Assembly (NCBI GenBank): GCA_963676395.1
Contig: OY781066.1
Coordinates: 1,440,001-1,504,000, forward strand
Reading direction: 5' to 3'
Origin: a bacterium
GTDB taxonomy: Bacteria > Fidelibacterota > Fidelibacteria > Fidelibacterales > Fidelibacteraceae
DNA length: 64,000 nt
How positions within the stretch are numbered: position 1 is the stretch's first letter; each line of letters begins with the position of its first letter. The position numbers and the translations under genes are program-made. Of this stretch, positions 1 through 11,297 are shown piece after piece. The notes below the pieces were generated by a model. That model saw nothing but the letters and a program-made list of their open reading frames with translations. It ran no database searches and was not told the origin of the DNA.

Positions 1-2
1 TT

Positions 3-272
3 TATAATTGTAAAACAGCCCAGTTCAAAGAAGACTACGGTTGGACAGCTCTTGACTTAGATGCCGGTGTTTATGCTGACGGTCGTGAAGATGCTGATTC
101 GGCTTCAGTTAATGTTATTCCCACACCTTCAGGTGCTGCATTTCAGAATGTTGATGCAGTGATCGCTGATGACTTCTTTGAAGCGGCTACTTTTAAAGGT
201 GCTTTTGGTTCAGTCAACTGGTTGGATGGTTGGTCATGGTTATCCGAAAACGATCGTTTGGTCGCTGAATAA
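3..272 (+). CDS. 3' end of a truncated CDS, probably an exported/lipoprotein
   Basis: Frame open from the window edge to TAA at 270-272 (YNCKTAQ...DDFFEAATFKGAFGSVNWLDGWSWLSENDRLVAE). The FFxxxxxxGAFG..NWxxGW ending resembles FCB-group exported proteins. Not in the ORF track because it has no start codon. Confidence 0.75.
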   Translation, partial: YNCKTAQFKEDYGWTALDLDAGVYADGREDADSASVNVIPTPSGAAFQNVDAVIADDFFEAATFKGAFGSVNWLDGWSWLSENDRLVAE

Positions 273-302
273 ATAATTAGACTGTCATAACAGTTTTTCT
301 TG

Positions 303-334
303 AAGAAGCGTTATTCCCACGGCGCTTCTTTTTT
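303..334 (+). terminator. Intrinsic terminator
   Basis: AAGAAGCG...CGCTTCTT stem followed by a T run, just after the truncated CDS. Confidence 0.65.
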
Positions 335-7575: not shown

Positions 7576-7623
7576 ATCGTGAGATGTAAAATGTAAGTCA
7601 TGAGACGGACATTTGATATAATC

Positions 7624-7657
7624 AAACCCTCTTGGTGTTAAGCTGAGAGGGTTTTTT
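7624..7657 (+). terminator. Intrinsic terminator after hppA
   Basis: AAACCCTCTTGG...CTGAGAGGGTTT stem followed by a T run. Confidence 0.75.
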
Positions 7658-7725
7658 GTTTCTTGTCTCTTGCATTTATATAGGGCTTTAATTAATATCT
7701 CACATCAATAAATAACAGAGGTCCT

Positions 7726-8646
7726 ATGCAAAACAACGACTATATTTCTCGTATTAATAAAGTTATGGATTTTATCGAAGCTAATTATGAAGAGGAATTG
7801 ACACTCGAAAAATTGGCATCTGTAGCGTGTTTTTCCAAGTATCATTTTTCAAGAATATTTCATGCCATGACCGGCGAAAGCTTATTTCAATTTATCTCAC
7901 GAGTTAGACTTGAGAAGTCAGCATCTTTATTGCTAGGGGATCCCAATAAGAGTATTACAGATGTCGCATTTCAATGCGGATTTAGTGATCTGTCGGTTTT
8001 TTCAAGAAACTTTAAGTCGTATTTTAATGTTTCTGCCGCCGAATACAGAAAAAATAAATATAGCAATAATCGTCAAACGCTTAGCAACGAGGGTCAAAAA
8101 AATGAGCGCGTTATTCCTTATTATTGTTCTGAAACGCAACAATTAAAATGGAGGAGTAGCATGAAGCTCAACAAAAGTATTGAAGTGAAAACCTTGCCAG
8201 ATATGACCGTAGCCTATGTCCGCTATGTTGGACCCTATGCCGGAGATGGCGCCCTGTTTGAACGATTATTCGGACAGCTGTTTGGATGGGCCGGTCCAAA
8301 AGGTTTGGCAGGTGGACCGGATGTCAAAACCTTGATTATCTATCACGATAACCCGGAGATCACAGATGATGCTAAATTGAGAACATCAGTGTGTTTAACG
8401 GTTCCCGAAGGCACTAAAGTTGATGGCGAAATTGGAAAAATGAAGCTTGATGGTGGTTTGTATGCCATTGGTCGCTTTAAGGTAAAAACCGATGAGTTCG
8501 GAGAAGCCTGGGATTTAATGTGTGGTAAATGGCTGCCTGAGAGCGGCTATCTGCCGGATGATCGCCCCAGCTTTGAAATGTATCCCGAAGAAATGAAGGA
8601 TGGAGTACATACGGTGGATATTTGTGTGCCGGTCAAAGCTAAATAA
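7726..8646 (+). CDS. AraC-family transcriptional regulator with C-terminal GyrI-like effector-binding domain
   Basis: N-terminal double HTH (FSKYHFSRIF...SITDVAFQCGFSDLSVFSRNFK); C-terminal GyrI-like domain (VAYVRYVGPY, YHDNPEIT, WLPESGY, FEMY). Confidence 0.93.
   Translation: MQNNDYISRINKVMDFIEANYEEELTLEKLASVACFSKYHFSRIFHAMTGESLFQFISRVRLEKSASLLLGDPNKSITDVAFQCGFSDLSVFSRNFKSYFNVSAAEYRKNKYSNNRQTLSNEGQKNERVIPYYCSETQQLKWRSSMKLNKSIEVKTLPDMTVAYVRYVGPYAGDGALFERLFGQLFGWAGPKGLAGGPDVKTLIIYHDNPEITDDAKLRTSVCLTVPEGTKVDGEIGKMKLDGGLYAIGRFKVKTDEFGEAWDLMCGKWLPESGYLPDDRPSFEMYPEEMKDGVHTVDICVPVKAK
8061..8163 (+). promoter_or_regulatory. Putative intragenic AraC-type operator/promoter, RBS and internal start
   Basis: Direct repeats TAGCAATAATCGTCAAA (8061-8077) and TAGCAACGAGGGTCAAA (8082-8098), TATTAT (8119-8124), GGAGG (8150-8154), in-frame ATG 8161. 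Confidence 0.6.
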
Positions 8647-8680
8647 TAATTAAAATTCAATATTGAATGCTTAATGGAAT

Positions 8681-8713
8681 AAAGAGCCCTTGCTGTAAAT
8701 GCGGGGCTCTTTT
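8681..8713 (+). terminator. Intrinsic terminator after the AraC gene
   Basis: AAAGAGCCCT...GGGGCTCTTT stem with T tail. Confidence 0.7.
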
Positions 8714-8900
8714 GGGTTGATCGAATAACGAACATTCGAGTGCTTGTTCTTTAGCAAATCATAAATCATTTTCATTCATTTGCTCACGTAAATTGATTGC
8801 TTTTTTGTTTCTGGGGATTTGTCTCTTGTCTCTTGTTTTCAAAGGCTATATTTATTACATTTTGGTGCTATTATCGAAACTAATTATGAAGGATTTTAAG

Positions 8901-10052
8901 ATGGCTGAATCAAAACGACTAGTTGCATTAGATGTATTCAGAGGAGCCACTGTTGCCCTGATGATCCTTGTAAATAATCCCGGTTCATGGGGTGCTCAGT
9001 ATCCTGCATTAAAACATGCAGCATGGCATGGCTGGACACCTACAGACTTTGTTTTTCCATTTTTCTTATTTATCGTTGGTGTTGCGATGGCTTTTGCTTT
9101 TCGTAAATATGATTATGAATTGAATAAGGATGCCAAAAAAAAGATCATTAAAAGAACACTGATCTTATATGGAATTGGAATATTTTTGGCCTTGTTAAGG
9201 CCGGTAAGCGGCGCGAATTTCGGTGAAGTTATTCATAATCTTTTTGCAAATTGGCGATTGGTTGGTGTGTTCCCCCGAATTGCCTTGTGTTATCTATTTG
9301 CTTCGTTGATCGTCCTGAAATTCAGTCATAAAACCGTTATTTGGATATCTGTCTCAATTTTAGTCGGCTATTGGGTATTGTTAGCCGCCACCGGTGGATA
9401 TGGTATCGAAGATGTTTTGGTAAGAAAATTTGATCTTGCAATATTGGGTGATGGTCATATGTATCACGGGTATCGTGATTCACTGGGTAATCGTATTGCT
9501 TTTGATCCAGAAGGTCTATTAAGCACTCTTCCCGCAATTGTTACCACCATACTTGGTTATTTTACCGGTATGCTTATTTTAAAAACACCGGATAAAAAAG
9601 AATTGGTGAAAAAGATCCTTATTCGTGGAGCTGCTTTTCTTGCCTTAGGTTTGGTTTGGGGTCTGTTTTTTCCAATCAATAAACCTATCTGGTCTTCATC
9701 TTATGTTGTATTAATGGGTGGTTGGGCCATGATATTCTTAGGCCTGTCAATTCTAGTTATTGATGTGCTCGGATGGAAGGGTGCAACTGAGCCTTTTGTT
9801 GTATTTGGTTCAAATCCACTATTTATATTTGTATTATCAGCGCTTTATGCAAAAACGATCGCCTTTTTTAAATTTATTCCTATGGGTGATAAGCTTGTAG
9901 GTATTAAAACATGGGTGTTTTATAACTGGTTTATGCCAATGGCAAATTATTCCAAGATAGATGCTTCTTTGTTATTTGCTTTAACAACGATTACGATCTT
10001 TTGGGCAATTTCATTAGTCCTTTATAAGAAAAAAATATTTATCAAAATATAG
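8901..10052 (+). CDS. HGSNAT/NagX-like membrane acyltransferase-family protein (DUF5009-like)
   Basis: RLVALDVFRG, LVNNPGSW, HAAWHGWTPTDFVFPFFLF, FDPEGLLST, PINKPIWSSSY. Start moved to ATG 8901 (AAGGA 7 nt upstream). Confidence 0.85.
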   Translation: MAESKRLVALDVFRGATVALMILVNNPGSWGAQYPALKHAAWHGWTPTDFVFPFFLFIVGVAMAFAFRKYDYELNKDAKKKIIKRTLILYGIGIFLALLRPVSGANFGEVIHNLFANWRLVGVFPRIALCYLFASLIVLKFSHKTVIWISVSILVGYWVLLAATGGYGIEDVLVRKFDLAILGDGHMYHGYRDSLGNRIAFDPEGLLSTLPAIVTTILGYFTGMLILKTPDKKELVKKILIRGAAFLALGLVWGLFFPINKPIWSSSYVVLMGGWAMIFLGLSILVIDVLGWKGATEPFVVFGSNPLFIFVLSALYAKTIAFFKFIPMGDKLVGIKTWVFYNWFMPMANYSKIDASLLFALTTITIFWAISLVLYKKKIFIKI

Positions 10053-10061
10053 GAGAAGATC

Positions 10062-11297
10062 ATGAAAAAGAAACTAAATGTAATATTACTATGTATTTTA
10101 GCTGTCTCCATATTGATTGCAAAGCCGAAAGTCAAGCTGGGTATTGATGTGCTGGAAGATCGTGGATTTGATCTTTTAAAAGGGAAAAAAGTTGCCTTGA
10201 TCACCAATCCCACGGGTGTAAGTCAGGATCTTCGTTCTACGGTTGATATCCTTTTTGAAGCACCTGAAGTTGAACTCGTTGCTCTTTTTGGTCCCGAACA
10301 TGGTGTTCGTGGAAATTTCTTTGCCGGCGATAAAGTTGATGATGATATAGATCCACTCACAGGAGTTCCTGTTTATTCATTATATGGTAAACGTAAACGA
10401 CCCACTCCAGAGTCACTCAAAGATGTAGATGTATTGATTTTTGATATTCAGGATATTGGCTGTCGTTCTTATACCTATATTAGTACAATGGGTCGTTGCA
10501 TGGAAGCTGCGGCAGAAAACGATGTTGAGTTTATGGTCCTCGATCGTCCCAATCCTTTAACCGGAAATATTGTTGAAGGTGCTACGGTAAAAGATGGTTT
10601 CCATTCAGGTGTTTCGGCCTATAAAATTCCCTATGTTCATGGCTTGACTATCGGTGAATTGGCTCAAGTTTATAATGAAGAGGGTTTGCTTAGAAATGGT
10701 GATAAATGCAAGCTGACCGTAGTGCCTATGAAGGGTTGGAAACGTAAAATGGCATTTGATGATACCGGTCTTCAGTGGGTACCTTCATCACCTCATATTC
10801 CAGAAGGTAATACACCACCATATTATGTTTCTACAGGTGTTATTGGTGAATTCTATCAATTGAATATTGGTGTTGGCTATACGATTCCTTTTAAATGTTA
10901 TGCGGCTGAATGGATAGATGGCAATGAGCTGGCTAAAGAAATGAATGCTCTTGGTTTAGAAGGAGTAACGTTCAGACCGATCGCTTATGACCCATTTTAC
11001 GGTGCAGACAAAGGGAAGCATGTACAAGGTGTACAGATTCATATTACAGATTTTAAAAAAGTGGAACTCATGTACTTGCAATTCCGTTTCTTAGAAGTAC
11101 ACTATCGCTTGTATCCCGAACATGATCTGTTTGAAATGAGTAAGAATCGCTGGAGAATGTTCGACTTGGTTTGTGGAACTGATGAAATTAGAACTGAATT
11201 TATGAAAAACCACAAATTTGAAGATATTAAGCCCATATTTGAAAGGGATGTAAACGAATTTAAAGAAATGTCTAAGAAATATTATCTTTATAGATAG
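10062..11297 (+). CDS. namZ: Exo-beta-N-acetylmuramidase NamZ family (DUF1343), with signal peptide
   Basis: LITNPTG, LFGPEHGVRG, FDIQDIGCRSYTY, LDRPNP, HGLTIGELA, WVPSSPHIP. Confidence 0.9.
   Translation: MKKKLNVILLCILAVSILIAKPKVKLGIDVLEDRGFDLLKGKKVALITNPTGVSQDLRSTVDILFEAPEVELVALFGPEHGVRGNFFAGDKVDDDIDPLTGVPVYSLYGKRKRPTPESLKDVDVLIFDIQDIGCRSYTYISTMGRCMEAAAENDVEFMVLDRPNPLTGNIVEGATVKDGFHSGVSAYKIPYVHGLTIGELAQVYNEEGLLRNGDKCKLTVVPMKGWKRKMAFDDTGLQWVPSSPHIPEGNTPPYYVSTGVIGEFYQLNIGVGYTIPFKCYAAEWIDGNELAKEMNALGLEGVTFRPIAYDPFYGADKGKHVQGVQIHITDFKKVELMYLQFRFLEVHYRLYPEHDLFEMSKNRWRMFDLVCGTDEIRTEFMKNHKFEDIKPIFERDVNEFKEMSKKYYLYR

Follow-up and report, generated by a model that had tools for sequence, protein, structure and literature searches.

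A putative promoter with operator-like repeats in the interdomain linker of AraC-GyrI genes, predicted to yield a nested GyrI-like protein

Introduction

A 64,000-nucleotide (nt) stretch of a Fidelibacteraceae genome (assembly GCA_963676395.1, contig OY781066.1, positions 1,440,001 to 1,504,000; hereafter the window, in whose coordinates positions are given) contains a gene for a protein that joins an AraC-type helix-turn-helix (HTH) domain to a GyrI-like domain. Between the two, the coding sequence holds a pair of direct repeats, a -10-like hexamer, a Shine-Dalgarno (SD) sequence and an in-frame ATG (Table 1). An earlier note on this DNA proposed that these elements form an AraC-type promoter within the gene, and all the coordinates that it gave for them agree with the window sequence. 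Comparison of 157 homologous genes indicates that the constraint on the stretch between the domains acts on the DNA, not on the peptide, and that each element, and the spacing between elements, is under nucleotide-level selection across phyla. The reading preferred here, to which we give a probability of roughly 0.7, is that an activator-dependent internal promoter in the linker yields a 161-amino-acid (aa) SbmC-like isoform. From sequence comparison we infer both transcript and isoform, and likewise what binds the repeats, in which direction it regulates and the ligand. In a literature search whose coverage left out most subscription journals, no account was found of AraC-GyrI genes with an internal promoter or a short isoform.

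Evidence for Selection on the Linker DNA

Homologues were gathered by a word-indexed search (1,648 proteins of similar length at E <= 0.001) and an exhaustive search (646 representatives of 50%-identity clusters at E <= 1e-30). Loci were fetched for 80 of 584 confirmed species-genome stretches and 80 of 553 metagenome stretches, and the window and two same-phylum genomes were added. Single alignments of at least 200 aa spanning both domains were given by 163 loci; five duplicates and one locus with a stop near codon 17 (L086, see below) were left out, leaving 157 distinct genes. These are 46-61% identical to the window gene, and their records are labelled Bacteroidales, other Bacteroidota, Firmicutes, Chloroflexota, Spirochaetia, Thermotogota, Desulfobacterales, Gemmatimonadota, Lentisphaeria, Calditrichaeota and several candidate phyla. 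Changes were counted on a tree of 157 tips for which the linker columns were left out and whose branches add up to 37.9 substitutions per site.

Codon-position conservation is reversed in the linker. Third positions changed a median of 54 times on the tree, whereas those of codons 113, 120, 133, 124 and 117 have the lowest counts in the gene apart from Trp and Met codons. Changes at positions 1, 2 and 3 number 26, 4 and 0 at codon 113, 33, 2 and 0 at codon 120, and 24, 8 and 2 at codon 133, with three third-position changes at codon 124 and four at codon 117. Codon 113 is read as AGC (115 genes), CGC (26), GGC (6), CAC (4) or AAC (1), so that its third base is C in 152/152; codon 120 is AGC (103), GGC (33), CGC (18) or one of three singletons, again with C at the third position (157/157). 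Wherever these codons specify serine they are AGC (115/115 and 103/103) and never TCN or AGT, while AGC accounts for 22% of serine codons elsewhere in these genes. The same holds for Gln117 and Gln124, which are CAA in 134 of 135 and 100 of 101 cases (44% elsewhere in these genes), and for Phe133, which is always TTT (87/87, compared with 62% elsewhere in these genes).

Around the SD sequence, the 131 arginine codons at position 143 comprise 121 AGG and 10 AGA with no CGN, although AGG makes up 21% of arginine codons elsewhere and, by contrast, all six arginine codons are in use at Arg108. Codon 142 is nGG in 152/157, and replacements of Trp by Arg there retain the GG. Averaged over codons 111-150, third positions carry an excess information of +0.44 bits, against +0.045 and +0.074 in the two domains. 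The linker peptide itself is predicted to be disordered: for residues 111-146 the AlphaFold2 confidence score (pLDDT) is below 50, whereas the two domains are modelled confidently. Fixed third bases beside free first bases support the suggestion, made in the earlier note, that the repeated SN..Q linker peptide is a by-product of a DNA operator, and the predicted disorder points the same way.

The spacing of the linker elements obeys the rules of a promoter and not those of a peptide linker. The period from repeat 1 to repeat 2 is 21 nt in 151/152 genes, and the TA of Tyr132 follows the beginning of codon 120 by 36 nt in 152/152. From Tyr132 to Met146, that is from the -10 element to the ATG, 137 of 152 genes have 42 nt and the others 39-69. 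The distance from the last HTH helix to repeat 1, on the other hand, varies from 12 to 129 nt. A lack of conservation of the repeat spacing, SD or internal Met among homologues would have spoken against the idea of the earlier note; the outcome was the opposite, as the period, the repeat-to-TA distance, the ATG and the codon choice that holds GGAGG all display.

Operator-Like Repeats

The two repeats of the window are direct, with a 4-bp spacer (CGCT) and a 21-bp period. The profile of the 140 canonically spaced sequences reads ATAGCAAT.T.AGTCAA / ATAGCAA.......CAA / 21 nt / TAYnTT / 21 nt / AAATGGAGGA / 5 nt / ATG. In this set a GCAA and a CAA block separated by 7 nt are conserved in both repeats, and in the distal repeat G, C, A and A are present in 135, 140, 140 and 139 of the 140. 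The 11 bp from one block to the other are what a single double-HTH domain would need to occupy two neighbouring major grooves, and the repeats are asymmetric sites with two recognition elements of the kind found at class II marbox and araI promoters. The marbox bound by MarA, SoxS and Rob is given as gcannwwntgnnaaa, and at class II promoters a site in forward orientation overlaps the -35 element with its centre at -36 to -55 (PMC12052159, accessible text); a RamA site lies at about -41 at micF (PMC8811837, accessible text). In the predicted geometry the proximal site is centred at about -40 relative to a start placed from the conserved TAnnnT. The distal repeat of the window has one mismatch to the marbox and the proximal repeat two; among homologues, 101/152 and 56/157 repeats have at most two, against 0.28% of background positions. 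At position 9 the homologue consensus, with its core GCA-N-CAAA, has A where the marbox has T.

A matrix built from the homologues only scores the distal repeat at 19.6 bits and the proximal repeat at 17.0 bits. In 628 kb of homologue loci it gives 323 matches of at least 13 bits, of which 292 are in phase in the linker (repeat 1 accounts for 133, repeat 2 for 115 and a third repeat, one period upstream, for 43). The 31 matches outside the linker in the same 628 kb are scattered; six lie no more than 300 nt upstream of a start. The top tandem pair of the host genome is the window site, at 36.6 bits. The second-best pair (30.7 bits; G000:C1 ~933190-933230, minus strand) lies in a Rex-like coding sequence, with the peptide ESNKEKIGGKIGQ. 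Neither a -10 nor an SD or ATG follows it at the spacing typical of the family, and it is probably a chance match.

The number of repeats varies between homologues. A third repeat scores one period upstream in 43/152 genes, and some metagenome homologues (L134, L135 and L142) have three or four near-identical heptads (SNSSQQV repeated), so that the operator array appears to grow and shrink in 21-bp units.

The Putative -10 Element and the Host

TAnnnT is found in 157/157 homologues, and no -35 element is conserved at its expected place in the 140-sequence profile, which fits dependence on an activator. The form of the -10 element differs with the label of the host. TAnnTTTG, the Bacteroidetes -7 box, is present in 38/43 Bacteroidia-labelled loci and in 2/26 labelled as other phyla, and these two exceptions are Bacteroidales-like sequences. 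Conversely, a match of at least 5/6 to TATAAT is found in 2/43 Bacteroidia-labelled and 15/26 other-phylum loci, the element being TATATT-like outside Bacteroidia-labelled genomes; relatives of the window host show TTGACA-type promoters. It is suggestive that the choice between Tyr-Phe-Cys and Tyr-Ile-Glu/Asp at this point of the linker may spell the promoter type of the host. The family is a natural test case for the adaptation of promoters (TAnnTTTG versus TATATT-like) to host sigma factors.

The Predicted Internal Start Site

Codon 146 is ATG in 151/157 genes, the others being TTG (2), CTG, GTG, TTA and TAT (1 each). An SD core precedes Met146 in 135/151 and is strong in 114, whereas the annotated start has one in 25/155 and three other conserved Met codons in 27/127, 67/150 and 0/89. 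GGAG is present in 26/26 other-phylum loci and is lost only among those labelled Bacteroidia (10/43); use of SD sequences is unusual in Bacteroidia. The window host does use them, with 54% of long open reading frames (ORFs) preceded by an SD against a background of 11.5% and a peak at -12 to -9, and the internal GGAGG stands at -11. Codons 147-151 (8161-8180) are A-rich and under mild synonymous constraint (Lys147 is AAA in 80/84, Asn149 AAC in 101/107). A-rich, synonymously constrained first codons often accompany true translation starts.

The SD sequence may be masked in the long mRNA. Positions 8099-8175 fold at -19.8 kcal/mol (z -3.48) with the SD paired, whereas the predicted leader alone folds weakly (-7.7 kcal/mol, z +0.27) and the short transcript is predicted to be open. 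A CTCC-like stretch that could pair with the SD occurs just upstream of the -10 element in 46/157 genes, compared with 4.3% of control windows. Over 140 genes, the mean probability that the SD is unpaired is 0.25 in the long context, 0.50 in the short transcript and 0.33 when the upstream part is shuffled, and in 38/140 sequences the masking beats the shuffles (at most 1 of 20 masks as well). In the window itself it is not significant, since 45% of upstream shuffles mask the SD as well. Support from the family is moderate, and SD masking in the long mRNA is best treated as a lead; if true, it would make the internal start dependent on the internal promoter for its use.

Domains of the Two Predicted Products

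The full-length protein matches the Pfam models HTH_18 (residues 30-109, E 7e-21) and HTH_AraC (E 9.4e-19), which places its DNA-binding domain in the AraC/XylS family, with a likeness to MarA, SoxS and Rob. Residues 152-304 cover positions 3-155 of the 155 in the GyrI-like model PF06445 (E 2.8e-31), a full-length match to the small-molecule-binding domain of SbmC and Cass2. The nested product would consist of one complete GyrI-like domain (PF06445 at its residues 7-159, E 4.9e-32). The best solved relatives are 7r3w, MarA (1bl0; E 7e-15, residues 3-112), SbmC (1jyh; E 1.3e-10) and Rob, and MarA is the closest characterised protein to the HTH domain. The alignment with SbmC (157 aa) covers residues 152-305, and the internal Met falls at the position where SbmC starts. 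Stand-alone GyrI-like relatives of 160-167 aa are present on long contigs.

No curated NCBIfam model reaches its cut-off for the full-length protein: the RobA equivalog NF012228 scores 62.4 bits (cut-off 380) with a match confined to the HTH part, and the SbmC equivalog 62.9 bits (cut-off 179). By these scores the AraC-GyrI protein shares the architecture of Rob, yet it is a separate family and no orthologue of Rob or SbmC.

Upstream of the gene, the promoter candidate listed in Table 1 was not flagged by the promoter scan, and its first hexamer matches at 3/6. A hairpin at 7624-7654 and the terminator-like hairpin downstream bracket a one-gene unit.

Table 1. Features of the AraC-GyrI gene and its putative internal promoter (window coordinates)
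Feature	Position	Strand	Remark
Full-length AraC-GyrI gene	7726..8646	+	306-aa ORF
MarA-like AraC double-HTH domain	residues ~1-110		
Linker	residues 111-146		
GyrI-like domain	residues ~149-305		
Candidate primary promoter of full-length gene	TTGCAT 7670-7675, 17 nt, TAATAT 7693-7698	+	putative, read by eye
AGAGG	7717-7721	+	precedes ATG 7726
Distal operator-like repeat TAGCAATAATCGTCAAA	8061-8077	+	17 bp
Marbox-like core of distal repeat GCAATAATCGTCAAA	8063-8077	+	centre ~-61 from predicted start
Proximal operator-like repeat TAGCAACGAGGGTCAAA	8082-8098	+	17 bp
Core of proximal repeat GCAACGAGGGTCAAA	8084-8098	+	centre ~-40, usual place of the -35 hexamer
Possible anti-SD stretch GUUAUUCCUU	8110..8119	+	would pair with 8151-8160 in the long mRNA only
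-10 element TATTAT	8119-8124	+	codons Tyr132-Tyr133, 20 nt after repeat 2
Predicted start of short transcript (~8131) and A-rich leader of ~30 nt	8131..8160	+	placed from the -10 position
Shine-Dalgarno GGAGG	8150-8154	+	codons Trp142-Arg143 (TGG AGG), begins 11 nt before ATG
Internal start ATG, Met146	8161-8163	+	in frame with 7726..8646
Nested in-frame ORF from Met146	8161..8646	+	161-aa GyrI-like (SbmC-like) product
Terminator-like hairpin 3' of gene	8688..8706	+	

Comparison With Known Systems

The earlier note had compared the repeats with araI1 and araI2 of the E. coli araBAD promoter. The layout quoted for it is indeed that read in E. coli K-12 (17-bp I1, 4 bp, 17-bp I2 and 20 nt to the -10 element TACTGT), and the geometry is identical to that of the linker elements. 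Like araBAD and the class II marbox promoters, the linker has asymmetric direct repeats of about 17 bp with a 21-bp period, a proximal site predicted to lie over the -35 position and no usable -35. The repeats agree with the marbox of MarA and Rob no less well than with araI. Unlike araBAD and the marbox promoters, the putative promoter of the window lies entirely within the reading frame of the regulator; unlike AraC, the AraC-GyrI protein is without an AraC-type dimerisation or arabinose domain.

E. coli Rob likewise combines a MarA-like HTH with a GyrI-like domain, and SbmC (GyrI) is a free GyrI protein. The E. coli rob gene is without the module: no site in it scores above 2.8 bits and no tandem pair above -21.6, nor does an SD precede the boundary Met125.

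The analogy drawn in the earlier note with TipA and AlbA holds for the working logic. In TipAL/TipAS (Streptomyces) and AlbA/AlbAS (Klebsiella), as predicted here for the short form, one gene gives both a ligand-sensing activator and a free ligand-binding domain. These systems are described as minimal autoregulated resistance modules (PMC7762955; bioRxiv 10.64898/2026.09.21.753095; accessible text of both). They are MerR-family proteins, however, whose isoforms come from alternative start codons and whose autoregulated promoter lies upstream of the gene, whereas in AraC-GyrI genes promoter and operators would be embedded in the coding linker. The domains found here are an AraC HTH and a GyrI-like domain in place of a MerR regulator with a TipAS-type domain, so that the analogy does not extend to homology. 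The TipAS-type effector fold differs from the GyrI-like fold.

A gene-internal promoter that gives a shorter in-frame product is described for an AraC-family regulator, VirF30/VirF21 of Shigella (PMC5101355, accessible text). VirF21 is made from a leaderless mRNA, lacks an N-terminal segment and autoregulates virF. The AraC-GyrI short form, by contrast, is predicted to have a leader with GGAGG and to be without the HTH, and its putative internal promoter has conserved operator repeats; it would be neither leaderless nor HTH-keeping, in contrast to a short form of the VirF type.

A Proposed Mechanism

The linker would play a dual role, as a disordered peptide and as a transcription and translation unit in the same DNA. 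The full-length protein would be made from the weak upstream start and would bind the repeats within its own gene. Once its GyrI-like domain is loaded with ligand, the protein at the proximal site, placed as in class II promoters or at araI2, would activate RNA polymerase. Efficient translation of the short transcript would give the SbmC-like protein with the same ligand pocket, which may sequester or neutralise the ligand and so damp the signal. The gene would thus unite sensor and effector in one unit.

A broader picture, offered tentatively and at somewhat less than even odds, is that of an ancient, horizontally mobile one-gene “sense-and-sponge” cassette, with operators, promoter and ribosome-binding site overprinted on the linker. 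The bound regulator would fire the short GyrI transcript and hinder read-through of the long one, in which the SD tends to be masked, so that output switches from sensor to effector.

Should the preferred reading be confirmed, the gene is a compact module for inducible protection without the help of a second gene, and such a module would explain both the patchy spread across phyla and the single-gene insertion described below. On the same reading, annotation overlooks a nested protein of 161 aa in hundreds of genes. The design may also reach beyond the 157 genes: the heptad footprint [S/R/G][N/K]xx[Q/K] followed by Tyr is present in 37/136 full-length representatives of more divergent clusters, which, at the peptide level only, suggests a design widespread in AraC-GyrI proteins. 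In more general terms, a linker that seems conserved as protein can be conserved as DNA, and third bases that are fixed beside first bases that are free offer a simple screen for regulatory DNA in coding sequence. For biosensor work the module offers a matched sensor, operator, promoter and output.

Alternative Explanations

Taken as a single sequence, the window has a layout that is not beyond chance: the repeats are 76% identical (13/17) and are one of seven two-copy direct families in 1,201 nt. Over the 157 homologous genes the pattern goes far beyond chance. Several observations weigh against the proposal of an activator-dependent internal promoter. A search for sequencing runs that contain the locus gave no RNA run, only one of DNA or unknown type in the form of contigs. 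A sigma-70 scan of the window called no site at TATTAT, because no -35 is present. Two of the 157 genes have a non-start codon at position 146 (TTA and TAT), and retention of GGAGG in 33/43 Bacteroidia may reflect a protein-level constraint on Trp-Arg. The homologues are related and their counts are not independent; in particular, the Bacteroidia sequences cluster as a clade, so that the link between -10 type and phylum may be a clade effect and does not amount to a statistical test. A host factor, in place of the gene's own product, could be the binder, and binding could repress, or block elongation, where activation is proposed.

If there were an internal translation start and no internal promoter, the short protein would come from the full-length mRNA, as with TipAS, and the repeats and TAnnnT would be kept for some other purpose such as elongation-blocking autoregulation. 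That conservation is strongest at the SD and the ATG speaks for this, as does the precedent of TipA, where two start codons on one gene give two isoforms (PMC7762955, accessible text). We nevertheless consider it unlikely, as it leaves unexplained why TAnnnT is universal at an invariant distance from the repeats, why the -10 type switches with the host phylum and why no -35 is found at the proximal site, and the SD tends to be paired in the very mRNA from which it would have to be read. It is rather improbable, too, that the promoter and operator are served by another regulator or by RNA polymerase alone, under constitutive or host control. Marbox-like sites are degenerate and are read by several paralogous regulators in enterobacteria (PMC10268841, PMC12052159; accessible text of both), which would suit a foreign binder, but the module is kept across many phyla and in an insertion of one gene, a setting in which a further shared factor is not to be expected. 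The sites moreover are of a type that suits the gene's own MarA-like domain, and no comparable site recurs in the flanks.

Selection on something other than a promoter would have to act through the heptad peptide (SNxxQxx), an overlapping gene or an RNA structure, and this we regard as very improbable. In a 28-protein alignment S113, N114, Q117, Q124, Y132, C134, K141, W142 and M146 are invariant (28/28), which would fit constraint on the protein; yet over the full set codons 113 and 120 vary in amino acid (Ser, Arg, Gly or His) with no variation at the third base, and disorder is predicted for the linker. The window does have an ORF in another frame (7961..8146), but an overlapping gene was rejected for the family, in which stops interrupt the other plus-strand frames in 146 and 148 of 152 genes and the minus-strand frames in 118-147 of 152. 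A conserved RNA structure was rejected likewise, RNAalifold giving no consensus (0.0 kcal/mol) on 59 diverse sequences. The slightest chance of all is given to a non-functional fossil of a fused two-gene operon, regulator then target. The stand-alone GyrI-like relatives of similar length and the coincidence of the internal Met with the start of SbmC are what such a fusion would leave, but a fossil would decay, and the zero to four third-position changes at the linker codons are far from the median of the gene.

Genomic Context

The AraC-GyrI gene is a one-gene insertion (window 7576-8792) between an H+-pyrophosphatase gene and the next gene. In five genomes of the same genus (G002, G008, G012, G018 and G021; comparison loci L195, L199, L202, L205 and L207/L210) the pyrophosphatase gene adjoins the downstream gene at 150-470 nt with no trace of an AraC-GyrI gene, and a search of 21 genomes of the genus gave no full-length orthologue. 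With a one-gene insertion, no regulator but the gene's own HTH is certain to move along with the operator.

A 10-mer, TTGTCTCTTG, occurs at 7663-7672 and 8819-8828, just upstream of the AraC-GyrI gene and of the gene that follows; at 8826-8835 the motif core is present a second time, overlapping the first. Counted on both strands, the genome has 19 exact copies of the 10-mer, which may be a small repeated element or may have been left by the insertion.

The excluded locus L086, from a metagenome-assembled genome labelled Latescibacterota, has its in-frame stop near HTH codon 17 (~2037-2039) while the linker module and the GyrI part are intact; the stop is either a sequencing error or the mark of a natural GyrI-only expresser. 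Downstream of the AraC-GyrI gene in the window, the neighbour at 8793-10049 encodes a 419-aa membrane protein without a Pfam match at E <= 0.001 and with 67-86% identity within the genus, and it precedes a gene for a NamZ-type exo-muramidase (10062-11297).

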